Of a stretch of 64,000 nt of DNA, positions 16,182-40,666 are shown in pieces. A program made the translations under genes and the position numbers. The notes beneath the pieces are model-generated. The model had not been told where the DNA came from and made no database searches. It saw only the letters and a list, made by a program, of their open reading frames with translations. The DNA lies in IMG/VR virus record IMGVR_UViG_3300026488_000015, positions 32,001-96,000 of that record. One strand, written 5' to 3'. Position 1 is the first letter of the stretch. Each line of letters opens with the position of its first letter. Source of the stretch: a virus.

Positions 16182-17274
16182 TTATTACCCAAGTGATAAC
16201 ATATTCAAGTGAGTTATCTTTTGTTCTAGCGGGAAAAGTTTTCATACTAAATATTTGGTCATCACAATAAAGTGCTGCTTCTGTGTATGCAACAACACCA
16301 CCACCTTCATCGTTACCTTGAGTCTGTGGTATAGTAACTTTATAAGTCACTTTATTATTTTCAGCAATAACATTGATATTTACACCTGAAGATATAGGTG
16401 CTACCGGTAAACCGATAAATGATTGGATACCTTCAATTTTATGCGATTTAGTCGTACCGTCTGCTGCTAGTATAATCGTTTCGTGTATTGTAGGGTGTGT
16501 CATAAGCGTATTATCAGTACTATCAAAATCTACTACGAAAGTATGCCCCAATGTAACATCTGTATAAGGCTCTAAAGTATTATACTGAATATCGTATAAT
16601 CCACCATCTTTAGGTATAATTGTATTACCTAATTTAGTAAACTCTTTTATATCACCTGAAGCCAAAGTAACGACATATACCACATTATTTTCTAATGTTA
16701 CTGGATAATTGTTGGCATTTGTTAAAATACTCACGCCATCAAATAAGAAACCTAAATCTCTGATAACATCGACAAACTTTTTACTTTGTTCTATTGTTTC
16801 GTACCCATTTGAGTTGATAACATAAGTCCCACCTGCTACTATCTCAGCACTTTCAATTTTCTTGAATTCCTTAACCTTACCATCTAGCATAATGAGACTA
16901 TAAGAAATAGTATGCTTAAGAACTACTGAAGCAGCAGTAGGATTTGTTAGGGTATCAGTACCATCAAAAGTAAGACCTAAATCTGTTACATTTTTAATAT
17001 CTTGGTGCGATTCAGAAAAAAGATTTGTTCTTGTATTTTCAAAATCTTTAGGGTCAAGGATAGAGCTCTTCCAACCCATATCACCTAAGATGAATCTGTT
17101 AATAGGTGAAGTAGTATTCACTTTACCTGACATATTTCTAGCCATTGCTGTTCTAGCACTAACCATAATCTTATTTTTCTCTTCATAGGTATCTATGATG
17201 ACACCATCTTTAAGAGTATCTACCTTAAATAGACCTTCTATCACTTTTCCATATTCTTCAATTGCTGTTTTCAT
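16174..17274 (-). CDS. Baseplate/fibre-attachment protein (tail-collar-like) with two inserted modules
   Basis: C-terminal YTEAALY...IFSMKTFPARTKD...ITWVITF typical of fibre-collar proteins; next to gp7/gp6. Confidence 0.55.
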   Translation of the reverse strand: MKTAIEEYGKVIEGLFKVDTLKDGVIIDTYEEKNKIMVSARTAMARNMSGKVNTTSPINRFILGDMGWKSSILDPKDFENTRTNLFSESHQDIKNVTDLGLTFDGTDTLTNPTAASVVLKHTISYSLIMLDGKVKEFKKIESAEIVAGGTYVINSNGYETIEQSKKFVDVIRDLGFLFDGVSILTNANNYPVTLENNVVYVVTLASGDIKEFTKLGNTIIPKDGGLYDIQYNTLEPYTDVTLGHTFVVDFDSTDNTLMTHPTIHETIILAADGTTKSHKIEGIQSFIGLPVAPISSGVNINVIAENNKVTYKVTIPQTQGNDEGGGVVAYTEAALYCDDQIFSMKTFPARTKDNSLEYVITWVITF

Positions 17275-17308
17275 TGATTAATCCCTTATAGTATTTCTTA
17301 TTATTTAT

Positions 17309-19228
17309 CTAATCTTGCCAATTAACGACAAAATCTTTTAGCGTAACCATATCTAGGCTAAGTAGATTGGTTCCTTTCATTTCTATCACATAGTTACCAT
17401 CTACCAAACCAGGTACTGTATGCGTGTATTGCCCGTTCGTGACACTCGAAGCAGTGGTGCTGAATATAAGGTCTTGTTCATTCTCGAATGAGTGTTCTAT
17501 ACTCGTTACCTTGATGCTAAGAGGTGTACCGTCTGCGAAGTGAAAAAGTGTACCACTAAAAGTAGTATTACCATTAGCTACATCGACTGAAATATCAATA
17601 TCAAAAATTAAATCTGAATCAATATCTGAATCTGTTTCCATATGATATTCTCTCTCAAGGTATGATGTACCTACACTAGAAGCTCCACCACCATCGATTA
17701 CTACACCATCATCATCTGAATCTAATGCGTGCCCACCATTAGCAAATCTTCTTTTTGTTATAAGCGTACTGTTAATTCCACCATAAACCCAAGAACCATC
17801 GAAATTAAATAAATCGTGTTTATTATCGCCCGTAAATGTAACCAAACCTACTAGACCATCATTAAGATTTTCTTCAATATCTTTAACGACTATTACTCTA
17901 GCAATATGATTACCATATTGTGCACTAACATAATCTTCAGGTGAGATACTTACATCTTTATATTTCTCTAATAAAACAAGCTTAGAAGTATCTTCTATAC
18001 CACTCAAATGATAATAATCAGCATTATCTTCGTATTTGTACACGAAAAAATTATAGTTGTACGAATCTTCTTCACCAAATTTGAATGTATTGAAAAGTCT
18101 CCAATCAGTTTCAAGATTATTATAGTGGATATGTTTATCCCAAAAATCAATGTTGAAATGGTCTTGGTAGTCTGTTACTTCATCAGCTAGTAGAAATTCA
18201 TAATCGTACTCGATTTTTGAATACATTAAACAAGATGAACCACTGAAAGTAGTTACTGGAATTTCGTGGTCATCACCAACATATATGTTAATGTCGCCCG
18301 AATCTACTAATTCTATATAACTAGCTAGTACAATACCATCGATAGTTTGAATTGGAGCATCATCTAACCAAGCTCTGATTGTCGTTACTGTCGTGGCATT
18401 ATAAATTCTAACATCTTCTTCATAACGATAGTTTCCTTCTGCATCTTTAGCTATATCTGTGATAATCTGTTCAGGATTACCTCTACAAGCAATAACAAGT
18501 TCCATATAACGAACTGTTGCTTTTTCAGAATAATTATCTTCAAAGAATGAAGAAATAATAGCCTTATAGATTACTTCAAAACCAACCGGGTGAAGAATTT
18601 TTCTTAGTACTCTATCGAAAATAATACTTGATACACTCGATTCGATACTATATACAAAAGGCTCTTTATCGTATTCTTTAGTATGTTCATTGAATTTACC
18701 TTCGTGCGTTCTAAGGAAGTATTCATTGAATGAAGATAGAATCTTAACAATATTAAGCTCTTTCATAATCCTAAAAGTATAATCATAAGACTTAAATGAA
18801 CCTTTTGTTTGAGAAAGTTCTTTACCAGTCATTACAGTTTCTTCGGTAATGGCTACATCTGTATTGATAAGAGAATCATTTGTTTGGAATTCATCGATTC
18901 CATACATCGCCAATATGTTTGATATTTTTGATGTGATTGTATAATCGTTTATTGATTCCTTAATACCGTCAAAAATATGTCTTAGATATATGCTAGTAAA
19001 ATCGTTTCTTAGAGCTTCAGCATCAACTCCTGCATCTTTTGCTGTTTCTGATTCATTCATTGTCAAGAAATCTAAAATATCATTTGGTCTTGATACTAAT
19101 TCTCGTTTTGAATCCATCGAATCCAAGAACATATTGAACGATTCATATAAGATTGGCGTATCGTGTTTTATGTTATCTGGTATAATCTTATCAAAATACT
19201 CTTTCATCGAATTATGTTTATTTGCCAT
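17309..19228 (-). CDS. Baseplate wedge subunit, gp7-like
   Basis: FVYSIES...LRKILHPVGF motif; follows gp6. Confidence 0.6.
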   Translation of the reverse strand: MANKHNSMKEYFDKIIPDNIKHDTPILYESFNMFLDSMDSKRELVSRPNDILDFLTMNESETAKDAGVDAEALRNDFTSIYLRHIFDGIKESINDYTITSKISNILAMYGIDEFQTNDSLINTDVAITEETVMTGKELSQTKGSFKSYDYTFRIMKELNIVKILSSFNEYFLRTHEGKFNEHTKEYDKEPFVYSIESSVSSIIFDRVLRKILHPVGFEVIYKAIISSFFEDNYSEKATVRYMELVIACRGNPEQIITDIAKDAEGNYRYEEDVRIYNATTVTTIRAWLDDAPIQTIDGIVLASYIELVDSGDINIYVGDDHEIPVTTFSGSSCLMYSKIEYDYEFLLADEVTDYQDHFNIDFWDKHIHYNNLETDWRLFNTFKFGEEDSYNYNFFVYKYEDNADYYHLSGIEDTSKLVLLEKYKDVSISPEDYVSAQYGNHIARVIVVKDIEENLNDGLVGLVTFTGDNKHDLFNFDGSWVYGGINSTLITKRRFANGGHALDSDDDGVVIDGGGASSVGTSYLEREYHMETDSDIDSDLIFDIDISVDVANGNTTFSGTLFHFADGTPLSIKVTSIEHSFENEQDLIFSTTASSVTNGQYTHTVPGLVDGNYVIEMKGTNLLSLDMVTLKDFVVNWQD

Positions 19229-19238
19229 CTAATTCTCC

Positions 19239-21293: not shown

Positions 21294-21330
21294 AAGTTGT
21301 ATCCCGTTTCTTATTATTTATAAGAAACGA

Positions 21331-21867: not shown

Positions 21868-21868
21868 A

Positions 21869-23209
21869 TTATTCTCCTTTCCATATTTCGCTGAAATCTA
21901 ATGCTGTTGGCACTGTCCCATTTTTAAGTAAATATCCTTTGATTCTCCAACCTTCAGATATTACATATATTCTATCTCCATTTTCAGGTAAGATAGATTC
22001 TGTTCCCTCTGGATTACTCATTGGGTTATAATCACTTGCAAACTGACTAACAGCTAAGTGACCTTGTGTATGAATTTCTAATAAAACAGAAATCTTATGT
22101 ATAGGTTGTGGTGAACCTGGAACACCGTAAAAAATATCGGGACTATGGTCGAATGTTTCAAAAATTACTTTGTATAATCCTGGAACTAATGTGAGTTCTA
22201 AATCAGAACTTACTCCACCCCATTGTTGTTGCCACCAGATACCAGGCACAAGATTACCTGCATCCCACACATCGTTCCCATTTACTGTTGGTCTTGTAGT
22301 AAAATCTTTAAGTGCTGAAATCGTTTGTACTGTATTAGTCGTAACAGCATTTGAAGCATTTTGTTTCAGGTTAAGTGCTGCTTGTGTAGCATTACTAATA
22401 GGTTTATCAAGGTCAAAAACATTATCCACATTTGTTAATCTTGAATTAATATCATCAAGCTTACCTTGAGTAATAGTATTTGTAGGTTTCTCTAAATCGT
22501 TTGTATTATCTACACGCTCTAATTCAAGGTTTGTTTTTGATACAGTAATATCATCGAATGTATTATCACATCTTCTACTATCAGCTAATCTAGGGTCGTT
22601 ACCTACTGTCACTTCTGAAGCAGTTACACCAAAATTCTTATTGAAAGCTGTGTTTTTAGTGAAAGCATCTTCTTTAGTGTCAATTTCAGTCTGTGTAGCT
22701 GTACTAATAGGTTTTTCTAAATCGTTTGTGTTATCTACACGCTCTAATTCAAGGTTTGTTTTTGAAATAACTATATCATCGAATTCATTATTACATTTAC
22801 GAGAATCCGAAAGCCTAGCATCATCACCTCTTGTTACAGTACTCGAAGTTGCTCCAAAGTTTCTATTGAAAGCTGAGTTCTTAGAGAAAGCATCTTCTTT
22901 AGTGTCGCTCTCAGTTTGTTGTGCTGTACTAACTGGTTTATCCATATCAGAAGTGTTATCCACATTATCCAGGCTTAAGTTTACTTTAGAAATATCAGCA
23001 TCATCGAATGTATTATTACATCTTCTCGAATCGACCAATCTAGGGTCTGAATCGTGAACACCTTCAAGTCTAGTAATTTCATCATAGAAAAAATCAATCG
23101 CTGCTTGTGTAGCTGTACTGATTGGTTTCTCTAAATCATTCGTGTTTTCTACTCTATCAAATTTCTTCTCTATCGCCTTTATTTTAGTATAATCAAAAAT
23201 ATCCATCAT
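21869..23209 (-). CDS. Short tail fibre with VDNTxDxxKPxS repeats
   Basis: Five VDNT.DL.KP.S.A.Q repeats, GDDARLSDSR/GNDPRLADSR, QTISALKDF...VWDAGNL; ~225-nt DNA periodicity. Confidence 0.75.
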   Translation of the reverse strand: MMDIFDYTKIKAIEKKFDRVENTNDLEKPISTATQAAIDFFYDEITRLEGVHDSDPRLVDSRRCNNTFDDADISKVNLSLDNVDNTSDMDKPVSTAQQTESDTKEDAFSKNSAFNRNFGATSSTVTRGDDARLSDSRKCNNEFDDIVISKTNLELERVDNTNDLEKPISTATQTEIDTKEDAFTKNTAFNKNFGVTASEVTVGNDPRLADSRRCDNTFDDITVSKTNLELERVDNTNDLEKPTNTITQGKLDDINSRLTNVDNVFDLDKPISNATQAALNLKQNASNAVTTNTVQTISALKDFTTRPTVNGNDVWDAGNLVPGIWWQQQWGGVSSDLELTLVPGLYKVIFETFDHSPDIFYGVPGSPQPIHKISVLLEIHTQGHLAVSQFASDYNPMSNPEGTESILPENGDRIYVISEGWRIKGYLLKNGTVPTALDFSEIWKGE

Positions 23210-24033
23210 TAAACCCCGTTCTTGAATTGTGAAGTTATCATTCTATTTTTTGAATCATAACCCATATAGTGAGTTGCTCTTCTCTCACCTTGTGTTTTCT
23301 TAACTTTACTAATAGTAATATCAATACTAGCACCTGATGGTATAACAACACCATCTTCAGGTACTATATAAGCATAGTTTTCTTCGTATGGTCTAGGTGC
23401 AATAGTTGTACTTCTGGCAATAACAAAGTCAGCTGGAATTACAACTGTACCACTGTGCCCAATATTATATGTACCTGCTTTGATTGTAATATCATCATCT
23501 AAGCTAATATTTCTGAATTTGAATTTTAAATAACTAGAAATTACAATATCAATATCATCAGGTAGAATACCAAATACAGTTAAATCAGACAAATCTAAGT
23601 CGATATAAGTATCACCAGTTAGTGTAACTGAAACTGCACTACTATTAGTTATTTCATTATCTAATGGTTCATAAGTTACACCATTAGGTAAACGGCGAAG
23701 AACTAAATCTGACTCGTGGTATCTGATTTCATTAACAATTCTTAATGTATCATTCCAATACATAGTTTTTCTTATGTAACGCTTTAAATAATATTCTGTG
23801 ATTTCATCTTCAGGGACTTCATACCAAATATCTAAGCTATCATTAAGGTCATTGTATTCAATCCATACAATATCATAATCTTCTAATTTATTGTCGTATC
23901 TATATATAATTCTTGCTTTACTCGTAAGTGCAGCGATGTCATTTGAAACAGATAGTAGCGAACTCCTACTAATATCCATTTCAGGTGAATAGATTTTATA
24001 AATCTGATTACCTTCTTTTTTGATGAGAGCCAT
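23209..24033 (-). CDS. Hypothetical structural protein
   Basis: 274-aa ORF behind a late promoter, coupled to the fibre gene. Confidence 0.55.
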   Translation of the reverse strand: MALIKKEGNQIYKIYSPEMDISRSSLLSVSNDIAALTSKARIIYRYDNKLEDYDIVWIEYNDLNDSLDIWYEVPEDEITEYYLKRYIRKTMYWNDTLRIVNEIRYHESDLVLRRLPNGVTYEPLDNEITNSSAVSVTLTGDTYIDLDLSDLTVFGILPDDIDIVISSYLKFKFRNISLDDDITIKAGTYNIGHSGTVVIPADFVIARSTTIAPRPYEENYAYIVPEDGVVIPSGASIDITISKVKKTQGERRATHYMGYDSKNRMITSQFKNGV

Positions 24034-24060
24034 TTAATCACCTTCCATATTTCTAAGTAT

Positions 24061-24405
24061 TTATATTACTATACTAATTGAAGTAAAATCTGTTTCTTCT
24101 TCAGTTCGTATTCTGTATTGTACATTTATCGTTAAACGATTATATTCGGGAGCGAATGTCACTTTTGTATTAACTTTATCGACCCTAGGTTCATTTGCCG
24201 TAACTAGAGTATTTACATAAGATTCTAAGTCAATAATATCAAGTTCATCTAAATCACTAAAAATATAATCCATTATCTTCGAACCCTTTGTTGGTTGAGC
24301 AGGGATAGTACCTTTTGGTGTACTAATGATATTCTTTATGCTTCTACGGATGACATCACGATTTTCTATATCATCGCCTTCTATATCTTTATATTTTAAA
24401 GCCAT
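24061..24405 (-). CDS. gp25: Baseplate wedge subunit gp25
   Basis: IRRSIKNIISTPKG..P..P..GS.I...IF, NEPRV; start moved to MALKYK (AGGAG SD). Confidence 0.88.
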   Translation of the reverse strand: MALKYKDIEGDDIENRDVIRRSIKNIISTPKGTIPAQPTKGSKIMDYIFSDLDELDIIDLESYVNTLVTANEPRVDKVNTKVTFAPEYNRLTINVQYRIRTEEETDFTSISIVI

Positions 24406-24406
24406 T

Positions 24407-24969: not shown

Positions 24970-26838
24970 TTAAGGTAAGTAAGTATAATAAGTCCTCTTA
25001 TCTATAATAGATTGAGTAAGATAACCTAGAGATTCTTTAGCTCTCAATACTTCAAAAAAGAACCCATAAGTTTTATTGATACATAAATTAACTGCACCAT
25101 AAACATCTTTAACATATCCTGAATCTATATCCCCAATATAACTTTCCAACTCGATAGTTCTATCGCTAATATTCATATCGATAATTCTAGTCACAAATAA
25201 CTCCCAAATGCTTGTACTATCTGAAGGTTGCACATATGCTGTTGTATCTGTTAGCGTAAAAATATCAATAACTTGATTCATACTCTCTTGCACTAATAAC
25301 ACTTTAGAGAAGAATTCGTTATCGCTATTATTCTGGTCGTTATTGATAGAATTAGTACGATTACCCAAATTAATGATTCTATCAATAATGTTTTTTATCT
25401 TAGCAATCTTATCTGAATCAAATAAAGCCCTAATATTATTATATCCACAATTAACCAAAACATCTGTACTTGCCCACTTATCTGATTCATTAATTCCAGT
25501 CTTCACTTCTTCTGTAATAATGTATTCATCATCAACTAGTAGTGAGAGGCTCCCAATCTTTGAAAATATTGTTTGTCCATCAAGCTCGTATGTAGTTCCC
25601 CCAACTAATGTTATTGTAGAAAATCCAGTATTAGTAATTGTATTATTATCATAAGTAAGACCACTAGGTAATGCCTCAGAAGAATAAGACCAAGTGCTAT
25701 TATAAATCTTATTATCGATTACTTGTGAACTATAAATGTCACCAGGTACATTTGCTGGACCAAAAGAAGCTGGAAAAAATATTGGTTCTATTATAAGAGA
25801 TATAAATTCTAAAAAATATTCAATATCTATTTCTTGTATTTCTGCACTAGGATAATTTAATAAGTCCGGGCTTCTCATTTTGTAATTCCATTTTTGTTTT
25901 GGGTTTACTGACCACAGTTTTTCTCCTAGTATTTCCATCGTCCAATTCATATAAGACGGATAAGTTGCATCTAATATTTCAAAAACTTCAAGACTCATTG
26001 CTGGAAACATAGGGCTTAAATTTATCTTATCGTATGGTGCACTAGCATTAGATATAGATGATAAGGCTTTCATTAAATCATCACTTACTACATTAGTAAA
26101 AAAATCACCCAATAAATCTTCAAAAATCTCATCAGGGACTTCACTAATGCTAGAGATAAATTCACCATCAGTAAGATTATTGATGCTTGTAAAATTCTTA
26201 TGTTGTAATGAGCCTTCTACAATCACTGCAAGAAAACCAACTACTCTTTTTGAGGTAGGGTGTACAAGTATTAATTTTTCTGAAATACTCGGCTCAATAT
26301 CCACTTCAGAAAAATTAATGCTATCCAATTCAAAAGAACCTCCGTATGATGTAGTGCTTATTACGAAATCTGTACTTTTTTCTCCTAACCCATCAAAAAG
26401 AAGGCCCATTACATCACCTAAATCTTTATCTGTAGCTATCTTAGTACCATCAGGCGTATCAAGAGTAACTATTTTATAATCTCCAGGTAGGATTAAATCT
26501 GTAGGTTCGAATTTATCATTAAGTGTAGTAAAACCTGCTGATGTTTTAGTGGGGAAAGTAAACTTACTATCAAATAAGTTTTTATAATAAGAAGAATTAT
26601 TTATGTCAAAATGTAATACATCTGATGCATTACGCCCTTTAAGTATAGCTCTCTGTTTTGCATAGTATAAGGCTTGTTGATGGTATTCTCCCGTGTGTAC
26701 GAGAGCAGGTAATAATGCCAGCATTTCTTTCGTAAAAGTAAGTTTTTCAACAATTTTTATGCGTTTCTTTGATTTACCTGAAGCGCCACTTTCAATTCCA
26801 TCGATAGTTTCTTGTTTAACTCGGTCAATAGCTGTCAT
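24970..26838 (-). CDS. Hypothetical baseplate-region protein (622 aa)
   Basis: Long ORF behind a late promoter; carries one copy of the shared inserted module. Confidence 0.6.
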   Translation of the reverse strand: MTAIDRVKQETIDGIESGASGKSKKRIKIVEKLTFTKEMLALLPALVHTGEYHQQALYYAKQRAILKGRNASDVLHFDINNSSYYKNLFDSKFTFPTKTSAGFTTLNDKFEPTDLILPGDYKIVTLDTPDGTKIATDKDLGDVMGLLFDGLGEKSTDFVISTTSYGGSFELDSINFSEVDIEPSISEKLILVHPTSKRVVGFLAVIVEGSLQHKNFTSINNLTDGEFISSISEVPDEIFEDLLGDFFTNVVSDDLMKALSSISNASAPYDKINLSPMFPAMSLEVFEILDATYPSYMNWTMEILGEKLWSVNPKQKWNYKMRSPDLLNYPSAEIQEIDIEYFLEFISLIIEPIFFPASFGPANVPGDIYSSQVIDNKIYNSTWSYSSEALPSGLTYDNNTITNTGFSTITLVGGTTYELDGQTIFSKIGSLSLLVDDEYIITEEVKTGINESDKWASTDVLVNCGYNNIRALFDSDKIAKIKNIIDRIINLGNRTNSINNDQNNSDNEFFSKVLLVQESMNQVIDIFTLTDTTAYVQPSDSTSIWELFVTRIIDMNISDRTIELESYIGDIDSGYVKDVYGAVNLCINKTYGFFFEVLRAKESLGYLTQSIIDKRTYYTYLP

Positions 26839-28473: not shown

Positions 28474-29598
28474 TTACTCCTTCTCATCTGCTCTAATCAA
28501 AGTTAGAGTTTGTGTAAAATGTCCCATTGTAATCTTATCGATACAAGTATGGATTAAATATTTTCCTGCTAGAGGCTTGAATTCATCATTTGGTTTGTCG
28601 GGGTCTGTATTTATTGATTCAATCGAACACATTTTCCCCGCATCTGCTTCCCAAGTACCATTTACTGTGATTAACATTTCTACATTATCAAGTAAATCGT
28701 TACCATAAGATGCCTTTAAGCCTCTTTCGTCCCTATGAACATTGTAAAAGAATTTCTCTTGGTCTGATTTCTCATTCACAATCATATTAAGCTTACTTTC
28801 AATTTTGTAATCAGCGTGTATATCTTCTTTCTTAATGTCTTCGGGGATAGTTGTTTTTGTTTCTATTTCGTATTTGAATGATTTTCCTTCAGGCAAGTTT
28901 ACTAGGTTATTTATTAGGCTGTTATTCTTTGAGTTTTTCTTAATAATTCTTTGAAAATCTCTCATTAAGGTTGTATCTTTGTACTCTAGCATAGCATCTA
29001 CTGGTTCAGCAGTCAATTCTGTAATGTCTTTAAGTGCGTATTTAAGTTTGCTTCTGAATACCAATAAACCTCTATCTCTAGCTAGTTTTTTAACTGTGTC
29101 GATGACATTTATTGCCTTTGAAGTAGTGATGGTATCCCAAGTATAATCATCTTTTGAACCCAAATCCAATTCATATAAACCTATATCAATATCTCCCATC
29201 AATGCTTTAACTACATCATAGATACCTTTCTCTTTGAAACCTTTTGAAATATAAGCTTGTGATGCATTGTAATATAATTTATCGACAAAATATAGATTCA
29301 CGGCTGTACCGTTTTCGTATTCTGTTTTATTCTGTGTTATCTCGATAATTTTGTATTCGGAATTATTAAAATTTATTTTGTTATGGTCTGTTAGATATAA
29401 TGAAATTCCAGTATCAAGATTAATAGGTAGAGTACTATAAAGACCTAGTGGGTCTAAGAATGTTATAGTACCATACGAAATACTTGAATCGATACTTCTT
29501 TCTAAAGTTAAATCTAAAACTTGTGCTGCAGGCACTGTTGTGTCCCCTATTTGTACTAGGAATTCAATTAAGGTATTTGAACTATTTAATGTTGTCAT
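28474..29598 (-). CDS. Baseplate hub protein, gp27-like
   Basis: Upstream of gp5; C-terminal LAGKYLI....DKI....FTQTLTLIR. Confidence 0.6.
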   Translation of the reverse strand: MTTLNSSNTLIEFLVQIGDTTVPAAQVLDLTLERSIDSSISYGTITFLDPLGLYSTLPINLDTGISLYLTDHNKINFNNSEYKIIEITQNKTEYENGTAVNLYFVDKLYYNASQAYISKGFKEKGIYDVVKALMGDIDIGLYELDLGSKDDYTWDTITTSKAINVIDTVKKLARDRGLLVFRSKLKYALKDITELTAEPVDAMLEYKDTTLMRDFQRIIKKNSKNNSLINNLVNLPEGKSFKYEIETKTTIPEDIKKEDIHADYKIESKLNMIVNEKSDQEKFFYNVHRDERGLKASYGNDLLDNVEMLITVNGTWEADAGKMCSIESINTDPDKPNDEFKPLAGKYLIHTCIDKITMGHFTQTLTLIRADEKE

Positions 29599-30526
29599 TT
29601 TCTATCCTCAATGCAACTACATAATCATCAAGAAGCTTAAGAAATTCTGTAATCTTCTCACCTTTAACTATCCTAAAAGTTCTGTATTTTTCATTTTCGT
29701 TTTCTAGTTCTAATTGTAGTTCTGCTTTCTTTGCTATAATATAATCATCAACTGCAGATTCAGGTTGAACTCTCGTGTTTATTTTGTATTCTGTACCAGG
29801 TAAAATATCTGTATTTACTGTAATCTTAGTTTTGTATTTATTATTATCTGAATCAGTAAATGAATAGTACCAACCACCTATTAATGATATTATATCTTGT
29901 GTTTCATTAATAAGAGAGACATTTGTTTTGCTTATGAAATTTATTGTGAGCCCTATTTTTGTAACTGGCACTCTTTTCTCTACTAGCTCTAATGGTTCTG
30001 TTAAATCATAATAAGTCCCATCTAAAATTTTGTGTGATTGATTCTTAGTAAATTTTGATATTTTGTCTTCATCTGTGTTGTGCACTGTATAAATCTGTGC
30101 ATTCTCTAATATTACATCATCGCCATTAGCGTTTAATGGATTTCTAATCTTTAAATAGAGAGGGTCTGAATAATCATATTCTAGTCCTAATGAACCAACT
30201 GAAGGGTATTCTGCTATACTAAAATATCTTAGATGTTCTTCAAGGTCGGCATCAACCTTTTGTAATACTGTATCCATATCTTTAGGTAGTTTATTAATAT
30301 CAATCATATTGTTTAACATCATTAAAATATCCCAATAGTCAAGTGTATTGTAGTACTGGAGAGAAATATATTCTAATTTTACATTATCTTCTAGTTCTAT
30401 TGTTACAAAAAGGTCTTCCATAGAAGATATACTTTCGGGTATGGTTCTTCCTTTAGTAAAATTCTTAAATGTTTGCCCACTTTCGGAATTTATTATATCA
30501 TCAAAAGTGTAAAATCTTTTCTTCAT
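29582..30526 (-). CDS. gp53: Baseplate wedge gp53-like with two inserted modules
   Basis: LEYISLQYY....YWDILMMLNNMID...LP and C-terminal ENENEKYRTFRI. Confidence 0.75.
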   Translation of the reverse strand: MKKRFYTFDDIINSESGQTFKNFTKGRTIPESISSMEDLFVTIELEDNVKLEYISLQYYNTLDYWDILMMLNNMIDINKLPKDMDTVLQKVDADLEEHLRYFSIAEYPSVGSLGLEYDYSDPLYLKIRNPLNANGDDVILENAQIYTVHNTDEDKISKFTKNQSHKILDGTYYDLTEPLELVEKRVPVTKIGLTINFISKTNVSLINETQDIISLIGGWYYSFTDSDNNKYKTKITVNTDILPGTEYKINTRVQPESAVDDYIIAKKAELQLELENENEKYRTFRIVKGEKITEFLKLLDDYVVALRIENDNIK

Positions 30527-30535
30527 TAGTATCTC

Positions 30536-31297: not shown

Positions 31298-32085
31298 TAT
31301 TTATCTCCCCAATCAGATTTATCTTTTGGTGCATATTCAGAAAAAGTTAAGGAAAGCGTACTCATTTTAGGAGTTAATCCATCTTCTGTTATGAACATAG
31401 CCATACTCCCATCTACACCGTATGATACTTTTGCAGATGTTAGTACACAAGCACTAAAGTTTATATTGTTATTTAGAAAAGAACTATCTTCACCAAAAGT
31501 TAAACTAAAAATATCAGGAGAAGATAAAAATATTCTACCAAATCCAGGTGACATAGCATTTTTGATGGCTATGATTCCTTCTGTAATAATGTTTGCTTCT
31601 TCCTCATTCTTAGGCATAAATGAAAACATCAAAGAAATACTTCTTGGTTCGTTCTCTCTAAATGTTAAATATGAGTTCGGGTTCACTGCTTCACCTTGTA
31701 CTGAAGCAATCTTAGTTGCAACACCAGACATTCCTTTGACTAAGGCTGCTATTTTTCCAGTTGCTTTGGCTACACCAGTCGAATTTCCATTTTTATCTGT
31801 CATACCAGCACCTGCTGCTCCAGCTTTATCGGCCATCCCTTGTGCTGCTCCAGTCAAACCAAAACCTTCCCAACCTACTGAAGAATTATCATTGATTACA
31901 TTAGGTAAAGGTAAATGCCAAGTCTGTGTGGCAGTACCTAATTCCCCTTTAATACCGTCTTTCTTCGATGGGGTACCTTTAAGTAGCTCCTTGTATAAAC
32001 TCATACTCCATTTAAAACTCTTCAATACCACAGTTCTATTTGTGATGATTCCATCTCCGTTTTTGTCAAACATTTTGAATGCCAT
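31297..32085 (-). CDS. Baseplate tail-tube cap, gp48-like (copy 1)
   Basis: LPLPN.I.D...V.W, NP...LTF....PRS....FSF.PKN.EEA, CVLT...VSY, L.LTF.E. Confidence 0.75.
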   Translation of the reverse strand: MAFKMFDKNGDGIITNRTVVLKSFKWSMSLYKELLKGTPSKKDGIKGELGTATQTWHLPLPNVINDNSSVGWEGFGLTGAAQGMADKAGAAGAGMTDKNGNSTGVAKATGKIAALVKGMSGVATKIASVQGEAVNPNSYLTFRENEPRSISLMFSFMPKNEEEANIITEGIIAIKNAMSPGFGRIFLSSPDIFSLTFGEDSSFLNNNINFSACVLTSAKVSYGVDGSMAMFITEDGLTPKMSTLSLTFSEYAPKDKSDWGDK

Positions 32086-32088
32086 TTG

Positions 32089-35000
32089 TTATGCTCCCTT
32101 TTCTAGTTTAGCATCTTTGATACTAGTATTATGTGTAGCACCTGCACTCGTTGTAGATGTAGTGTTTTGTATTTGAGGTGTTTTATTCTGTTTTACTTCT
32201 GCTCTCGTTTGTTTGTGTGACTCAACGAGTGCTACGACAGCTGGGTCAGGCTTCTTCTCATATTTTGTGAATGCTGTTGCTTTAAGACCAGAATTCTTAA
32301 ACATTTCTTGATAAGCTTCATTAGCGGCAGCACCAGTTTCATAAGATACTGGTTGTTTCGTAGTACCTTCTGTGAATGTCTTGCTATCCTTCTTAGTAAT
32401 CGTTTGGCCTTCTGAATCGATACTAACACCACCTGATACTGGTGCCGGTGCTGTTCCATCTTTTCTGTATTGTTTCATACCATTATCTCTAATACTTTTT
32501 CTGTCAATACCCAAAGGCTCAACATGCCAGGTTTCAGAAGCAACGATAGGTCTCCAAAAACCATATTTTCTGAATAGGTTCGCTTTGATTGCATCATTGG
32601 CATCTACCGTCTGAATATCGAATGCTAGACCATAGTTGTGCATTGATTTCCCTGGTGATGCAGCCTTCTTTCCTTTTCGTTTCTTCATATCAGCTTGTTC
32701 TTCAAAGCTTCTGAATGCTGAATTAACTTGCATCTTACGACCAGTGATTTCTTTAAATTCCATTGCCATACCTTTAAGGTTATGGAGAACATTTTCATCA
32801 AGACCTTCGATGTCGTTGTTTCCGTTGTTAATGAATAATTCTTTGAGTGACATATCATCTGTCGTTCTAACTTGACCGGCATCTGTATAGGTAACTTTCT
32901 TAGGTGTGTACTCGACACGACCTGAATAGTTACTCATTACATTAGCACCACCTTCGTTATCAAAAGTAGTGAAGCCTGATATATTATCCCTTTCTGTTTC
33001 TCTGCTTTTAAGAAACATAGCAATCTGGTGAGAAAGACTATCTCTCTTCCCTTCTATTTTAGTTTTCCTTTCTACATAAGTAGCTAAGCTTGACCACTGT
33101 GATAGAGGTATGCTTCTCATTTCTATCAAATCTTTTATTACTAATGGTTTGGCTCCCCAAATACCGGCATTATTAACTATAACAATACCCTCTTTCACTA
33201 AACCGGCAAGAAATTCTTCCATATTTTTATTCTTTAATTTTGATAGTTTATCTAGTTTCGATTTCGATGTTGCCATTACTTTTGTGTATATAGCTAATGA
33301 ACCATCTTCTAGTGCTACTTGTTTTGAATATGTAGCTTTATCTTCAAAATCTGTTCCTGAATCTCTTACTATTGCATCATCAGCACCATTTTTAAGGAAT
33401 TGTTTCTGGATAAATTTCTTTCTGTCTTTTTCTGTTAGGTCTTTACTAAGGGCCTTATATTCTTTAGTCCCAACAGCTCTTCCAGACATTTGTTTCATTA
33501 TACTATGGCTTTTCTTAATTTTTGCATCTTCTTCAGCTAAATTGTTTTGATTGTCTGTAACACCATTAATGATAGCTATCATTTTATCGCCTTCATTAGC
33601 AAATAAACTCTCATCTTTTACTCTATATTTAATATCGTTAATTAACTCAGCTCTTTGGTTCTCATCTAGGTATGTTGTGATATACTCTCTGAATCTTGAT
33701 TTCTTATATACAATACCATCATTTGTATTGTTAGGGTTCACAATATCTGCATCAATCATTGCTTCATAAATATCATCACCACTAGCATCTTTACGAACAG
33801 CATCTAATGTAGCTTTCTTACTCTTATCTTCAAATCTCATAGTAGTTTTTTTAGATGTTATTATACCAGTCTTAGCATTTTTTACTAATTTTGTACCGCT
33901 CGTACCGAATATAGCCATAGCTTCTTCACCATATTGTAATACCGCTGGGTCAGATGCTCCAAATTTTTCTCTTCTCACCATAATAATTTTTAAGAAATCA
34001 TCATTATTACCTTCGATGTAGCTCATAGCTTTGTCGAATTCTTCTAACGAAAGCTCTTCACTCGTTATAATATATTTAACGAAATCTTCCTCTGGTGATG
34101 AACCCCATAACCAAGAAGCCTGTGATGTCCCTAGTGCCGCTATACTTTTAGCTATTACAGCAACTCGTTTCTCGTAATTCGGGCCGAAAATATTTTTCGT
34201 TGCATTTCTGATTTCCACTGCATCTACAGCTAGTAGAGCACCAGTGATTAAACCAGCTGTTAAGACACCACCAATCTTGAATACTGATTTACCTAGACCC
34301 TTTACTCCTTTAAAAGCAGTTTTAAAGAATCCACTCTTAGCCATTTTAGGTTTGAAATGATTTGCTTTGGGTTTAGGTGTACTCCCTTTTTTTATAGTAG
34401 ATTTAGTATCACCAGACATCTTAGTTTTTCTTTTTTGTTCTGTTTCCATTCGTTTTTTGTTGGCTTCTGATTTCTTCTGCTGTTTGTCTTTACTATTTTG
34501 TTGCTGTTGTTTTTTCTTGTCGTTACCTTTTTTATTCTTCTTATCTTTTTTATCAGGCATACAACCACAACCAGACATAACCCCACGACCTTTCCCTTTA
34601 CCTCTTCTTCTACTAGAATTATTTCTTCGTTGGCTTCTATTTCTTTTTCTGTCTCTTTTGGATTGTTTTTTATCATTCTGGCTATTCTTTTTGTCTTTAC
34701 CTGGGCCTTCAGGCATATCCATACTTTTTGAAGAATTCAATAAATTTTTACCAAATACAGCTTTCCAAACCTTGTTAATCATTCTCTTAGCAAATCTTAG
34801 AGCTTTCTTAACCATTATCTTAAATTTTCTGAACATTTTCTTGAATGGAGCCAACAGCTTACCGAACATTTTCTTAACCATCGGACCTATCTTTTTCCAC
34901 AGCTTCGTAGCCAATAGACCTAATCCAGCCATTATCATATCCCATATCGATGTGTCTTCATCATCTTTTATGGCTTTACCATTTTTATCAAATTTTTGTT

Positions 35001-36237
35001 TTTTGTCTTTCTTGCCTTTTCTATCGATTGAAGTATCTTGCTCATCAACCATCTGGTCAGCAATCTTTTCTAGGTTCTCATTAATGCTTTCAGAAAGCTT
35101 AATCATTTTCTTAGAATCATCAGCTGTATAATCATTATCATTTAGAGAATTTTTGATACCCAATGAAGCTCCTAATGAACCTAGCATACCGTATTGCTCT
35201 TCCTTCTTTTCTTGTGTTTCTTTCTGTTTTTTCTCTTTAAGCTTATCAGCTGGAGTCGGGTTCTTTTCTGAATCTTCTTCTGTTTTTTGTCGTTCTTTAT
35301 CGTTAGCTCTAGCTTGTTCTACATCATCGCTTACACCGAAGGCATCAGTAATGTATTGGTTACCTAAGCTAGAAATAAAATCATCCTTAGAAATACTAGA
35401 ATAACCATATTTCTTTCTAATGTCATTGTGCATCTTCATCAAAGCTAATGTTTCATTTTGTACCATATTTCTAGCATCATTTTGTTCATTAATATTATCT
35501 ACTGTGTATGCATTACTAACCAGTGTAACATATTTGTACATATTAACGCTTTTATCGAGAACCATTTTCTGGCCTCTCGTTTCTTGGTCTAATGAATCAG
35601 TAACCTTATCTAATGTATCACCAGAGAATTTTAAAGCAGAAGATTTTACTGTATCTTGTGCTCTCTCCATTAGAGAACCTTTTTCTGATTTCTCTGCTAG
35701 TGAATCTTCTTTCTCTTTGATTTTAGATTGTAGTTTTAGTGTTTTCTTCTCATCGCCAGTAATTTTAGCTACTTCTAGTTCTTCTTCGAGGTCTGATAGT
35801 CTATTCTGGCTTCTCTCTCGTGATTCTCTTGTATTGAATAAAGCACCGATTGATTCTGATGCAAGATTTTTGATAGCATCAAGTGGGCTATCTATCATAT
35901 CAGAAAGTTTTTTGTGTTTCTTCTCTTTTAGATTATCTACTTTTTCTCTATCTGATATAGCCTTATCTAAATCAGAAAGTTTTTCTGGTGTTCCTGATGT
36001 TTCTATGCCGTCTGTTTTTTTCTGTTGTATTGCTACTTTTTTATCGTGTTGTGCTCTAGCAATGAATAAAGTGGTTAATAATTGTTTTGTTTGTGTGAGT
36101 TCAAGCTCAATAGTATCTGAAGGTTGACCTTGTTCTTTTTTCGAGGCTATAGATTTTTCTATTTTAGCCATACTCTTATAAGAATCTTCAAGCCTAGTGT
36201 TAATATCTATTATATTTTGTTGGTCTTGTGCGTTCAT
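32089..36237 (-). CDS. Tape-measure-like protein with C-terminal M15 (VanY-type) peptidase
   Basis: Long helical protein between gp26-like and gp48-like genes; NSAFRS.EEQ, AASPGKSMHNYGLAFDI, ETWHVE. Confidence 0.75.
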   Translation of the reverse strand: MNAQDQQNIIDINTRLEDSYKSMAKIEKSIASKKEQGQPSDTIELELTQTKQLLTTLFIARAQHDKKVAIQQKKTDGIETSGTPEKLSDLDKAISDREKVDNLKEKKHKKLSDMIDSPLDAIKNLASESIGALFNTRESRERSQNRLSDLEEELEVAKITGDEKKTLKLQSKIKEKEDSLAEKSEKGSLMERAQDTVKSSALKFSGDTLDKVTDSLDQETRGQKMVLDKSVNMYKYVTLVSNAYTVDNINEQNDARNMVQNETLALMKMHNDIRKKYGYSSISKDDFISSLGNQYITDAFGVSDDVEQARANDKERQKTEEDSEKNPTPADKLKEKKQKETQEKKEEQYGMLGSLGASLGIKNSLNDNDYTADDSKKMIKLSESINENLEKIADQMVDEQDTSIDRKGKKDKKQKFDKNGKAIKDDEDTSIWDMIMAGLGLLATKLWKKIGPMVKKMFGKLLAPFKKMFRKFKIMVKKALRFAKRMINKVWKAVFGKNLLNSSKSMDMPEGPGKDKKNSQNDKKQSKRDRKRNRSQRRNNSSRRRGKGKGRGVMSGCGCMPDKKDKKNKKGNDKKKQQQQNSKDKQQKKSEANKKRMETEQKRKTKMSGDTKSTIKKGSTPKPKANHFKPKMAKSGFFKTAFKGVKGLGKSVFKIGGVLTAGLITGALLAVDAVEIRNATKNIFGPNYEKRVAVIAKSIAALGTSQASWLWGSSPEEDFVKYIITSEELSLEEFDKAMSYIEGNNDDFLKIIMVRREKFGASDPAVLQYGEEAMAIFGTSGTKLVKNAKTGIITSKKTTMRFEDKSKKATLDAVRKDASGDDIYEAMIDADIVNPNNTNDGIVYKKSRFREYITTYLDENQRAELINDIKYRVKDESLFANEGDKMIAIINGVTDNQNNLAEEDAKIKKSHSIMKQMSGRAVGTKEYKALSKDLTEKDRKKFIQKQFLKNGADDAIVRDSGTDFEDKATYSKQVALEDGSLAIYTKVMATSKSKLDKLSKLKNKNMEEFLAGLVKEGIVIVNNAGIWGAKPLVIKDLIEMRSIPLSQWSSLATYVERKTKIEGKRDSLSHQIAMFLKSRETERDNISGFTTFDNEGGANVMSNYSGRVEYTPKKVTYTDAGQVRTTDDMSLKELFINNGNNDIEGLDENVLHNLKGMAMEFKEITGRKMQVNSAFRSFEEQADMKKRKGKKAASPGKSMHNYGLAFDIQTVDANDAIKANLFRKYGFWRPIVASETWHVEPLGIDRKSIRDNGMKQYRKDGTAPAPVSGGVSIDSEGQTITKKDSKTFTEGTTKQPVSYETGAAANEAYQEMFKNSGLKATAFTKYEKKPDPAVVALVESHKQTRAEVKQNKTPQIQNTTSTTSAGATHNTSIKDAKLEKGA

Positions 36238-36274
36238 CAGATAACCCTCTTTTAGTATTATTTATCTGAATCGT

Positions 36275-36970: not shown

Positions 36971-37677
36971 TATAAAGTACCGAAAAAGTTTGGAAGAACA
37001 TCAAATTCTAAATTGTGTTCCTTATTACAGCCCTCTGTTTGGCATTGATAAGTACCAGTAATATCAAAATAACTCATTTGTTTAACATATTCTTCTAGTA
37101 ACTGCTCATAATCGCTCATATCTAAGTCGCTGATGTACTCGAACATTTCTTCAAAAGTGTACTCGTTTTTGATTCCATCAGCATCTTCAAAAGAATTTAC
37201 CCTAAGAACCATTTCAATAATAGTAGCATCATCTTCAAGATATTTTCCCTCTTGTGCTGAAAGAACCTCAGCTTTAATATCTTTTTGGAGATTAAAAGTA
37301 ATATCGCCTATTACTATTTTTGCGAAAGTATCTGGTTCAAAATTACTACATTTAGCTAAATCCACATCGATTTTTGTATTCTCTTCACATTTAGGGCATA
37401 AATAATCGAATTTAATATTGTTACCTAGTGTGTTTTTTCTAATCTGTGTAAGCATATATAAGAGGTCGTAGTTTGAAAGGTATTCTCCCTCGTAATCTTT
37501 AACACAAGGTAGAACCAATGTACGGAGTTGTTCTTCGGTTAGCATTTCAATATCGAACGAATTTTCTAAGACTTCATTGAATGACTTAACATCACGACCT
37601 TTCCATTTTCTTAGAAACATAGGTTTATCGTGCATTTCTATTTCAATATCGAATTTATCTTCTTTCTTAATACTCAT
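36970..37677 (-). CDS. Baseplate hub assembly protein, gp26-like
   Basis: DLLYMLTQIR....G..I.F.Y.CPKC, C-terminal C..C...NFF. Confidence 0.7.
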   Translation of the reverse strand: MSIKKEDKFDIEIEMHDKPMFLRKWKGRDVKSFNEVLENSFDIEMLTEEQLRTLVLPCVKDYEGEYLSNYDLLYMLTQIRKNTLGNNIKFDYLCPKCEENTKIDVDLAKCSNFEPDTFAKIVIGDITFNLQKDIKAEVLSAQEGKYLEDDATIIEMVLRVNSFEDADGIKNEYTFEEMFEYISDLDMSDYEQLLEEYVKQMSYFDITGTYQCQTEGCNKEHNLEFDVLPNFFGTL

Positions 37678-37702
37678 TAAGTATCCTTTATTTTAATATT
37701 AT

Positions 37703-38227
37703 TTATCTAGTTTTGAATGATATACTAAATTCTGCTATTTGTGATTCGTTTGTTCTATCTAAAGAAATATTTGAAACACTATCAAGTATAGCTACTTCAG
37801 TTTCAAAAATGACTACATCTGAATCGTAAGGAGTAATTTTAAGACCCCAATACTGGTCTTCAGGAAACATATCTTTAGTCCCATCGAGAATATAAGTCAT
37901 TAATCTATATAGGTAAAAATCATCAAAATCATTAAATGTTACATCTATTCTCTTTAGTTCTTTGATACCGGTAGTATAACTCCACTGCCCACCTACAAAA
38001 GTTTCTATGGGTTGAGTTACTAAATCTGGTATAGTAAAGGTTTTTATAGCTAAATTAAGTTTATCTACTTCATCAGCTGAATCTTCATCAAAATCTACTT
38101 CTTTAAGCTTAGTATAAGTTTCATCTATATAGAAATACCCTGCAGGGAAACTTACAGTAAGTTTGAAGTCATTAACATAATCCCACTTTGTTTCATATAT
38201 TTTTGTGATAACATCTTTTAATGCCAT
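37703..38227 (-). CDS. Tube-fold protein, gp54/gp19-like
   Basis: N.F.L, IP, VTF.D, VS.ISLD.T...QIAEFSISF resemble the gp19 paralogs. Confidence 0.55.
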   Translation of the reverse strand: MALKDVITKIYETKWDYVNDFKLTVSFPAGYFYIDETYTKLKEVDFDEDSADEVDKLNLAIKTFTIPDLVTQPIETFVGGQWSYTTGIKELKRIDVTFNDFDDFYLYRLMTYILDGTKDMFPEDQYWGLKITPYDSDVVIFETEVAILDSVSNISLDRTNESQIAEFSISFKTR

Positions 38228-38249
38228 AATATACCTCTTTTAGAAGTAT

Positions 38250-38678
38250 TTATACTTTAAACGATAATGTTTCTTTGGATATTTCTAATAATGAAGTTTT
38301 CCTTTCTAGTACGAGTTTTTGTAAATGAACTAATGAAGCTAATTCTAATGTGAGTTTAGTTTTATAAGCGGATTCTTTCTCTTTAGGGGTACTGAAGTAA
38401 ATTACATATAATCCTTGTTCAGGACGAGGCTCACCATAAGCATCTACTTCAAAAATTAAAATGTATTCATCTTGTTTAAAATAAGGAGAACTCTTCATCC
38501 TAGATTTAAGATTTTCTAAAGTTTTCTTAAATATGTTAGTGCTTGTTCTTTCATCGAATTTGATATATGATACTGAACCTTCATCTTTATTTTGTTTGGA
38601 TTCGTATGCAACTGCATTTCTGTAAGAGTAGTTTGGTAAGTATTTGTTGATTTCTTTAGTGAGAGTGAATGAAGTCAT
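38250..38678 (-). CDS. Hypothetical early protein inserted in the tail operon
   Basis: Has its own early promoter at 38700-38721. Confidence 0.6.
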   Translation of the reverse strand: MTSFTLTKEINKYLPNYSYRNAVAYESKQNKDEGSVSYIKFDERTSTNIFKKTLENLKSRMKSSPYFKQDEYILIFEVDAYGEPRPEQGLYVIYFSTPKEKESAYKTKLTLELASLVHLQKLVLERKTSLLEISKETLSFKV

Positions 38679-38699
38679 AATATATCCTTTATAAGATAT

Positions 38700-38721
38700 A
38701 TTATAACATAAGTAGACTTAA
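38700..38721 (-). promoter_or_regulatory. Early-type promoter
   Basis: TTAAG TCTACT TATGTTATAAT. Confidence 0.75.
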
Positions 38722-38734
38722 AGCCTACTTAAAA

Positions 38735-40666
38735 TTAACCGATGATTGTATCAATATCAGTCGAAGCATTAACAGCAGTGAATCTAAGAGTAATAAATTC
38801 AGCGATGTAGTTAGGTTTAACAATGATGTCTGCAATGAACTCGTTTTTCTCAACGATAGCAGGCGTGTTGTTAGACGCATCACAAATTGCTCTGTACTCA
38901 TTAATACCACGGTTACTTTGAACTGTGTTAAGGAATGGAACGATAGCACTTAAAAATCTGTTTCTTGTGAAAGAATCATTGATTTCGAATGTGAAAGATT
39001 TTGAAGTCTTATAGATTACTCTTTCAAGGTAGTTGAATAAAGCTCTTGTAGTAACTCTATCAAATGCACTTGGTACAGAAGTATAAGTCTTGTTACCCCA
39101 AATAACATTTCCAGAACCTGGGAATGAAGTTACGATATTTGTCTTGTTTTGGTACATAGCGTCTCTTTGAGTCTTGTTTGGAATGAAAGCGAATTTCTTA
39201 ACATTCTTAACGCCACCTCTTTGAATACCTGCTGCTGCAGTCCACGGATTTTGTAACTCATTAGTCTGAGCTCTAATTCCAGCCATATCTCCTGCAAGAT
39301 TTAACCATACATTTTTACCAGTGAATTTATCGAATTGGAACTTGTAGTTACCATAAAATGCTGCATAAACAGTATTTACATTCATATCTCCAGCTTTAGT
39401 GTAATCAACGATTGCTTGAGTAGCATTGATTGAAGTTTTACCAACAGTATCTTCAAATCTAGCACCAACATAAGCGATACAATCTCTTCTCATATTTGCT
39501 AAGTTAATAGCTGAAACTGGTGAAAGTTCATTAGCGATAATTAAATCAACATCGATTTCATCAATATTTTCATATAATTTGTAACCATCAATGATTTCTG
39601 CTTGAGTAGCCATACCGTTATTACCACCAGCGAATTCAACTGTATCAGCTGTAATTACACCATCTTGTGAATACATCTTAGAAGCAACACCATCAACGGC
39701 ACCGTTATCTTTAACATAAACAAGATTAGATTTTTCATTTATAACATTTTCGATGTAAGTTGATTTATTTGCATAATCAACAGCACTTTCATCTAAAGAA
39801 ACGATATAAGTTTCAACAACGATATTGTCCTTAGTGATAAGAACGGCAACTTCTCCTGCTGCAGCAGCATATTCGAATTGGTCATCGATAGTAACACCTG
39901 AGAATGCTTCTGAAGGAGTAGCTGTACTGAAATCTGATGCGTTAGCAATAGATACTTCTAAATTATCTCCCCAAACACCTGGGTTTCTAGCAAAGAATTT
40001 AAGTTTTGAACCTGCGTCATCTGTAAGTGCACTAATAGTTTCAGTTACAACATCTAATTGATATGGAACACCTGGTACATAAGCACCACCACCATCAGTA
40101 TAACCAGCAACGATTGCACCAAATCCAACTTTTGTAAACTTACCTGCACCTTCGATAGTGTAAATTACGCCGTCTTCTAAAGAAACAGTCGTAGCGTCAT
40201 CTGCTAGTGATAATTGAGTACCATTAAGTGAAACACCTAAATCAGTTAAAGAAACAAGAACATCTCCTGACTCATCTACACCGAATTGAACTCCACCTAA
40301 TGAGAACACATCCCAATCAGATTTATTCTTAACAAGTTGTGGTGTAGCTGTGATATGTGCGTCATTTGCTACAGAACCGATTTCTGCTACTGAATTAAGT
40401 GCGTCTGCACCAACTACACGAGTTACATAAGAAAAACCTGCACCGTAGTTAAGGAAGTTATAACCTTGATACCATTGATTCATAATACTTGAATTTGGTT
40501 TACCGAAAACTGTTACATAATCATTTGTTGTTCCGATTGCTGTTAATTCATCAACTGGACCTTTTACGAAATCACCAACAAATACTGCTGCTGAATTACC
40601 TACACGATTTGTTACAACCGATGCATCTATTTCTACTACTTCTGAACCTGGGCTTAATAATGCCAT
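38735..40666 (-). CDS. gp18: Tail sheath protein
   Basis: MALLSPG..V.EID, G.F.KGPV, FLNYG, PG.WG, AAG..RG, WGNKT..S.PSAFDR, FEIND.FTR, CD.SNNTP. Confidence 0.96.
   Translation of the reverse strand: MALLSPGSEVVEIDASVVTNRVGNSAAVFVGDFVKGPVDELTAIGTTNDYVTVFGKPNSSIMNQWYQGYNFLNYGAGFSYVTRVVGADALNSVAEIGSVANDAHITATPQLVKNKSDWDVFSLGGVQFGVDESGDVLVSLTDLGVSLNGTQLSLADDATTVSLEDGVIYTIEGAGKFTKVGFGAIVAGYTDGGGAYVPGVPYQLDVVTETISALTDDAGSKLKFFARNPGVWGDNLEVSIANASDFSTATPSEAFSGVTIDDQFEYAAAAGEVAVLITKDNIVVETYIVSLDESAVDYANKSTYIENVINEKSNLVYVKDNGAVDGVASKMYSQDGVITADTVEFAGGNNGMATQAEIIDGYKLYENIDEIDVDLIIANELSPVSAINLANMRRDCIAYVGARFEDTVGKTSINATQAIVDYTKAGDMNVNTVYAAFYGNYKFQFDKFTGKNVWLNLAGDMAGIRAQTNELQNPWTAAAGIQRGGVKNVKKFAFIPNKTQRDAMYQNKTNIVTSFPGSGNVIWGNKTYTSVPSAFDRVTTRALFNYLERVIYKTSKSFTFEINDSFTRNRFLSAIVPFLNTVQSNRGINEYRAICDASNNTPAIVEKNEFIADIIVKPNYIAEFITLRFTAVNASTDIDTIIG

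Follow-up and report, generated by a model that had tools for sequence, protein, structure and literature searches.

Immunoglobulin-like (Ig-like) accessory domains on phage virion proteins were reportedly described by Fraser and colleagues in 2006 (reference 72 of PMC9230969). Such domains (Big_2, I-set and FN3, with T4 Hoc as an example) are small and all-beta, occur on unrelated virion proteins, are dispensable for assembly, are patchy among relatives and are presumed to be exposed. A module with these same traits was analysed in a stretch of viral DNA of 64,000 nucleotides, referred to here as the window (positions 32,001 to 96,000 of IMG/VR record IMGVR_UViG_3300026488_000015, a genome of 146,525 bp). 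It corresponds to the tail-baseplate gene block of a T4-like myovirus of ~33% G+C, and the module recurs in the tail sheath and in proteins of the baseplate block. Its best fold matches, although weak, are Ig-like (lamin tail, AlkC and PapD-like domains, Z 3.0-3.8). Unlike the Ig-like accessory domains, it has no sequence match to a named Ig-like family, it is placed internally, in loops, and not as a terminal extension, and it is confined to few metagenomic T4-like phages. At ~65 residues it is also smaller than the canonical seven-strand Ig domain, with a predicted make-up of six strands and a helical turn. A preliminary description of this DNA had allowed that the novelty would drop if the copies were a known Ig-like decoration domain. 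The outcome is divided: the module falls in no named Ig-like family, and the fold likeness leans that way weakly. It is a new domain family, while the pasting of accessory domains into virion proteins was already known.

The second group of described systems is found in tail sheaths. In T4 gp18, domain I (residues 98-188) is set within domain II and projects outward, free of contacts between sheath subunits. The baseplate and the long tail fibres in their retracted state are its binding partners, and its mutations prevent the fibres from retracting (PMC3004832). The additional domains of sheath proteins are located at a distance from the tube and are commoner in larger genomes, and they have been proposed to serve in adhesion, appendage binding or stabilisation (PMC9230969). 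The sheath copy of the module occupies the same slot in the chain as T4 domain I, and, like the additional domains, it supplements a sheath core made up of the conserved N- and C-terminal parts. The predicted composition of the module, a helical turn and six strands, also recalls that of T4 domain I. No sequence alignment was obtained between T4 domain I and the sheath module across this region, and the 50 best structural matches of the module do not include T4 gp18, which does not exclude a likeness of fold. The published survey of additional domains covers sheaths only, whereas here the sheath domain has clear paralogues in baseplate proteins of the same phage. In the same way, domain I is not known from T4 baseplate proteins, whereas the module is common to two or three other tail proteins.

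Five copies of the module are encoded in three genes, all on the minus strand, as is every gene of the window. The first host gene (16174-17274), within the baseplate gene block, encodes a protein of 366 aa with two tandem copies, P1a (16789-16995; residues 94-162) and P1b (16564-16770; residues 169-237). The second (29582-30526) encodes a 314-aa protein at the position of gp53, with copy x (29981-30202; residues 109-182) and, in tandem with it, copy y (29765-29968; residues 187-254), the most diverged of all. The third (38735-40666) encodes the gp18-like tail sheath of 643 aa, in which a single copy (40052-40258; residues 137-205) lies within a variable outer region, residues 99-225. A six-frame scan of the 146.5-kb genome gave no extra copies elsewhere.

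The homology of these five copies is confirmed by profile comparisons. P1a and P1b match each other at 3e-8 (phmmer). A profile built from these two alone found, as its best other open reading frames (ORFs) in the window, the sheath (E 5e-4, 11.4 bits) and the 314-aa protein (E 7e-4, 13 bits); the top score among 1050 shuffled or reversed decoys was 7.2 bits. Orthologues were also collected, in the end three of the 366-aa protein, two of the 314-aa protein and four of the sheath; a profile was built from them for each host family (copies x and y being profiled separately) and run on the other hosts. The 366-aa-family profile reached the 314-aa protein at E 6.6e-7 (16.7 bits for copy x alone). 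The sheath-family profile found the 366-aa protein at E 8.7e-8 and the 314-aa protein at E 8.9e-5, matching copy y at 13.1 bits. The profiles of copies x and y both returned to the 366-aa protein, at E 7e-6 and E 2.7e-5 respectively, the latter on P1a with 15.5 bits; P1a was likewise matched by the sheath-family and copy x profiles. The top foreign matches of the family profiles are one another, full length and in register. Among 3500 decoys the top scores were 8-13 bits, and a single decoy (13.3 bits with the sheath-family profile) was not exceeded. By hhalign, an 18-row profile run against all 146 window ORFs of at least 60 aa gave the five copies 96-99% probability (99.0% for x and 98.8% for y); next came a 622-aa protein at 77.5% and a 274-aa protein at 4% (score 20), and the remainder stayed below 2%. 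These results bear out the earlier claim that one module is present in several unrelated tail proteins, as far as the 366-aa protein, the 314-aa protein and the sheath are concerned. The proposed check by hidden Markov models built on the copies also gave significant cross-family matches (E 1e-4 to 1e-8), except for the step from the 366-aa family to the sheath, the weakest link at E 0.039.

That weakest link is one of the points which could be taken to mean that the copies have no common origin and merely display a generic beta-strand pattern, reached through composition or convergence. Pairwise identity among the copies is only 19-35%. A 4-row profile run against 1.84 billion representatives gave clear matches to orthologues of the host proteins only (P0007 at 2e-24, P0105 at 2e-9), and it also drew six other proteins, five with repeated beta domains (FN3, He_PIG, DUF11, cadherin-like and DUF6242) and one beta-propeller. 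As relatives of the module these six were rejected, since their scores were gathered from many partial stretches. Independent origins are nevertheless extremely improbable: four independent family profiles pick one another over their full length and above all decoys but one, hhalign sets the copies apart from every other ORF, and the cross-family alignment folds with a mean predicted local distance difference test (pLDDT) score of 89.5, with the same secondary structure as in the model from a single family. The invariant positions of the module are a Leu and two Tyr residues, with a Gly nearly so, and these are core residues.

The relation of the module to its hosts was next read from natural homologues. 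For the 366-aa protein, ~95 homologues have 203-268 aa (the family norm is ~205 aa) and are without the pair; their two ends can be aligned, and the gap at residues ~90-240 opens directly after a conserved LFSE. Homologues in Campylobacter and Vibrio phages are encoded by ~534-590 bases (178-196 aa). The tandem pair is kept in only three relatives, which are 58-80% identical. For the 314-aa protein, the comparison is provided by L005, a syntenic Logan contig of 123.7 kb, where the gp53-position protein has 162 aa, is 55% identical in the common parts and is without exactly the 150 residues that carry x and y, a clean deletion. In line with this, PHROG families matching the N-terminus of the 314-aa protein are 108-163 positions long. 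The sheath and a 365-aa protein of L005 retain their modules. The comparison with insert-less homologues, which the preliminary description had called for, thus supports the module as an insert in at least two hosts, the 366-aa and 314-aa proteins. Since insert-less homologues exist, the scaffolds can assemble without the module, which makes it an accessory domain; as is usual for such domains, one domain is spread over three unrelated host families that also have homologues without it.

At the sheath, the claim that the module interrupts the canonical sequence takes another form. The identity of the host is clear from Pfam (Phage_sheath_1, 2.2e-12; Phage_sheath_1C, 2.1e-11), PHROGs (phrog_23, 5.8e-89) and PDB sequences (9ev2, 5.7e-70; T4 gp18, 3.8e-68). 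T4 gp18 aligns to it at residues 1-98 and 226-643 only, and the module at 137-205 falls inside the unaligned stretch 99-225. There is no net gain in length, because the sheaths of Vibrio and Campylobacter phages hold an equally long, unrelated stretch here. The gap in the alignment and the equally long outgroup stretches together indicate that the module fills the slot of T4 domain I, a variable slot and not a plain interruption. The module was absent from the sheaths of Vibrio phage pv27, Campylobacter phage NCTC12673 and the distant IMG/VR relative L012, whereas five sheaths of the clade retain it, among them that of the close relative L011, which lay outside the training set and scored 50.9 bits. 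By analogy of position, the earlier suggestion that the module is displayed along the tail surface is likely for this copy, the slot being that of the outward T4 domain I (PMC3004832).

The fold of the module was predicted with AlphaFold. From the 18-row cross-family alignment, the module alone (copy P1a) gave the pLDDT mentioned above with a predicted TM-score (pTM) of 0.72: a one-turn N-terminal helix on the DLG motif is followed by six short strands over ~65 residues. The 366-aa protein modelled with its own-family alignment has a mean pLDDT of 69.9 (72-90 in P1a and 66-77 in P1b); both copies show the identical pattern of helix-turn and six strands, and low-confidence linkers tie the modules to each other and to the base domain. 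Foldseek returned nothing at E 0.001 or better for the module in PDB or BFVD, nor for the whole 366-aa model in PDB. With VIA-align, the top match of the module is the Ig fold of lamin A/C (Z 3.8, root-mean-square deviation (rmsd) 3.4, 55/118 residues), followed by the Ig-like domain of AlkC (Z 3.8, rmsd 2.8, 46 residues) and, at about Z 3, by PapD-like domains, C-terminal sandwiches of glycosidases, barrels of translation factors and the I-domain of the Sf6 coat. The ESM Atlas held no usable match for the tandem pair or the sheath region. When the 18 module sequences were run singly against Pfam at E up to 5, no family was matched by more than one member, the best being LTD at 0.015, and the module profile found nothing meaningful among PDB sequences. 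From these fold and family searches the module appears to be a small beta domain without an assignable family, possibly a reduced Ig-like sandwich.

The base domain of the 366-aa model (residues 1-90 and 240-366) was seen to resemble proteins of tails and baseplates: chain BD of the HFTV1 tail (Z 8.0, rmsd 3.0, 121 residues), chain b of the phi812 baseplate (Z 6.8) and the fibre-tail adaptor of phage GP4 (Z 6.5). The family of this protein is common in metagenomes (~95 clusters); it has no Pfam match, and its profile found no solved relative among PDB sequences. The preliminary description had taken it for a collar-like protein. Its position is in the baseplate block and its only match is phrog_5417, a family of unknown function, and the collar label is withdrawn.

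The modules evolve faster than the scaffolds in which they are set. In the sheath, the module is 26-40% identical where the scaffold is 77-88% identical; the corresponding values are 43-73% and 65-83% for the 366-aa protein, and 45-64% and 63-77% for the 314-aa protein. For the more distant relatives, modules are 26-45% identical as against 63-88% for scaffolds. When 18 modules were placed in a maximum-likelihood tree, their grouping followed the position of the copy and not the phage. P1a and P1b make up a single clade there (support 96/97), a sign of tandem duplication. Compared as DNA, the five copies share no similarity beyond chance words of up to 14 bases, and recent duplication or gene conversion was ruled out on this basis. 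The clustering by position, the low identity among copies of the window and the lack of DNA similarity place the insertions before the divergence of the known relatives. The word mobile, used of the module earlier, therefore applies to its history and not to any current activity.

These observations are best accommodated, at a probability that we put at roughly 0.55, by an accessory domain that is exposed on the virion, in the manner of its Ig-like counterparts in other phages, and would probably provide weak binding to surfaces. Dispensability for the scaffold, the outward sheath slot, flexible linkage and fast evolution all fit such a domain. An autonomous domain of ~65 residues would have entered loops of tail proteins that are otherwise unrelated, at the time of the common ancestor of a small uncultured clade of T4-like phages: as a pair in a protein of ~205 aa, as a pair in the gp53-position protein, singly in the sheath and probably singly in the 622-aa protein. 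It would most likely face the exterior of the virion, with many copies arrayed from the baseplate along the sheath, and most probably binds, weakly and multivalently, a polymer on surfaces of the host or of its surroundings. Homology, the status as inserts, a confident common fold, an old age (orthology by position) and fast evolution are established for the copies, whereas exposure in the two baseplate proteins and the binding function are inferred. T4 has 138 sheath subunits and 6 of gp53 (PMC3004832); if the copy numbers of the T4 host proteins hold, well over a hundred modules would be present per virion.

Several points weigh against this reading. The module has no significant similarity to any carbohydrate-binding or Ig-like family in Pfam or among PDB sequences, and its fold matches peak at Z 3.8. 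For the sheath and the gp53-position protein, exposure is argued from analogy and from the position of the insert. In T4, gp53 is located in the inner, upper baseplate, where an insert may fall short of the exterior. Relaxed constraint on a functionless spacer could explain the fast evolution just as well. For Ig-like virion domains and additional sheath domains, the roles put forward are weak adhesion to carbohydrate on surfaces, the binding of tail appendages and cementing (PMC9230969). Among the possible roles we rank adhesion first, docking of the phage's own fibres second, bracing third and a tag for modification last.

The slot shared with T4 domain I is what brings fibre docking into consideration. 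The module would then be a surface that receives the phage's own long fibres (the downstream proteins of 2296 aa and 1229 aa) when these fold back on the tail, or a decoration protein, and a single docking domain on sheath and baseplate proteins would form a continuous track. T4 domain I holds the retracted long tail fibres, and retraction is blocked by its mutations (PMC3004832); moreover, the module is restricted to tail proteins in this genome and shares a gene block with giant fibre genes. Conservation of 26-40% among sheath modules of the clade, however, is low for a docking interface unless the partner co-evolves, and L005 dispenses with the copies of the gp53-position protein. Docking is a concrete and testable idea, held as a less likely role, well behind adhesion.

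A related and broader idea is that the module acts as a shared address, by which one partner would recognise a surface common to the sheath, the protein at the gp53 position and the baseplate proteins of the periphery. By analogy with T4 domain I, the partner could be the giant fibres folded back, or else the neighbouring radical-SAM and glycosyltransferase machinery. We consider this unlikely, a little more so than docking itself; if it were true, the state of the fibres, or else the modification, throughout the tail would be governed by one domain family.

In the case of structural bracing, the modules would contact neighbouring subunits or each other and so cement a large tail and baseplate. 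Added sheath domains have been proposed as such cement, and domain II of the phage 812 sheath touches its neighbour (PMC9230969); the tandem arrangement and the display in multiple copies would permit lateral contacts. The equivalent slot in T4, on the other hand, holds a domain that makes no subunit contacts (PMC3004832), the flexible linkers of the 366-aa model and the fast drift suit a dangling domain better than a fixed interface, and natural forms without the insert exist. A bracing role is accordingly rated as improbable.

The last role, that of a tag, had been raised in the preliminary description with regard to a modification operon; recognition or modification by the products of the radical-SAM and glycosyltransferase genes beside the fibre genes has the gene neighbourhood in its favour. 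The modules have 1.87 N-x-S/T sites per 100 aa as against 1.05 in the window proteins, and about half of the copies have N-x-T/S in the same column of the alignment. This excess is small, is counted over orthologues that are not independent, and comes from a proteome rich in Asn and Thr. No modifiable residue is invariant, the invariant Leu, Tyr and Tyr and the nearly invariant Gly belonging to the core. Glycosylation argued from the N-x-S/T excess was set aside as too weak, and the tag is a very improbable role. The recurrent site (NNT, NET, NLT or NNS) is at a conserved Asn, residue 18 of P1a, which could be a structural turn or a site of modification.

Adhesion by an exposed domain is the role that we favour for the five copies, and a probable sixth, diverged copy extends the series to the 622-aa protein (24970-26838). 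This copy (25501-25665, minus strand; residues 392-446) aligns to the full module with every hallmark retained. The hhalign probability of 77.5% corresponds to a score of 37.1 and E 1.9e-5 over 55 columns, where the background does not exceed 4% and a score of 20; by HMMER, the match is only at E 0.002-0.006. No confirming orthologue was found: the positional counterpart in L003 is 22% identical and without the module, and L005 has no such gene there. The slot between gp5 and gp25 was observed to be hypervariable, with the 622-aa protein here, a 731-aa protein (L003:7869-10064, 22% identical) in the closest relative and just a 135-aa ORF in L005 (between 12270 and 12717).

The preliminary description had counted a copy in the 622-aa protein and a weak one in the 274-aa protein (23209-24033). 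The former is upheld as probable. The latter (23581-23682, minus strand) is unsupported, with an HMM E of 0.48 and an hhalign probability of 4-18% over the first half of the module only, and orthologues of the 274-aa protein score no more than 1.6% by hhalign. The two proteins do have a common stretch, LP(N/S)G(V/L)TY..(N/D)(E/T)ITN(S/T) (phmmer 9e-4). The segments LPSGLTYDNNTITNTG of the 622-aa protein and LPNGVTYEPLDNEITNS of the 274-aa protein resemble what we take to be the core motif of He_PIG. Residues 360-419 of the 622-aa protein match He_PIG (PF05345) weakly, at E 0.021 and 15.7 bits, below the gathering cut-off of 24, and, as noted, a He_PIG repeat protein was drawn by the module profile. 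None of the 18 module sequences (0/18) matches He_PIG at E up to 5. The motif common to the two proteins may nonetheless be a link between the module and domains of the He_PIG type.

The gene order of the window, from high to low coordinates, was assigned with PHROGs and Pfam. Tube paralogues and the sheath are followed by two hub proteins, a 1382-aa protein with a lysis domain at the tape-measure position, two gp48/54-like proteins and the 314-aa protein; then come a 374-aa tail protein, gp5, the 622-aa protein, gp25, the 274-aa protein, a repeat-rich fibre-like protein, gp6, a 639-aa protein, the 366-aa protein and, at the end, the 1229-aa and 2296-aa proteins. The order gp48/54-like, 314-aa gene and gp5 fits gp53. 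The N-terminus of the 314-aa protein weakly matches phrog_12943 (7e-6, unknown function) and phrog_7145 ('baseplate wedge subunit', 0.0019); no Pfam match was obtained at E up to 1, and its family profile had no match among PDB sequences. Of the last two proteins in this order, the 2296-aa one alone matches tail-fibre families. The 1382-aa protein (32089-36237) has an endolysin-type domain at residues 1140-1248, and its L005 counterpart is annotated Peptidase_M23. In the fibre-like protein of 446 aa (21869-23209), short repeated stretches match 19 PHROG families (tail fibre, minor tail and virion structural), which suggests a fibre built of repeats.

The closest named phages are the Vibrio pv27/Va1 group and the Campylobacter Eucampyvirinae, with sheaths only 37-41% identical. 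Among IMG/VR loci, the sheath query gave one close relative (L011) and one distant (L012), and the query with the 366-aa protein found zero relatives; the module alignment itself contained no stretch of sufficient conservation for such a query. The range of the module is a handful of metagenomic T4-like phages. In the protein collection, the window proteins sit on a contig of 331,651 bp, as against the genome of 146,525 bp; the two may be separate assemblies, or one of them a concatemer.

The clade is known from metagenomes only, and current concepts of accessory domains are unchanged by it. What the module adds is a clean further case of phage tails gaining accessory domains, in which an unnamed family occupies the sheath as well as two or three proteins of the baseplate in the same virion. 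Decoration of both sheath and baseplate proteins by a single family is unusual, all the more so with natural pairs with and without the insert, which for two of the hosts amount to a natural deletion experiment. The inserts also mark loops in three conserved tail proteins that tolerate 70-150 additional residues, which is useful for display engineering, and the sheath copy gives a testable handle on the role of the outer sheath domain.

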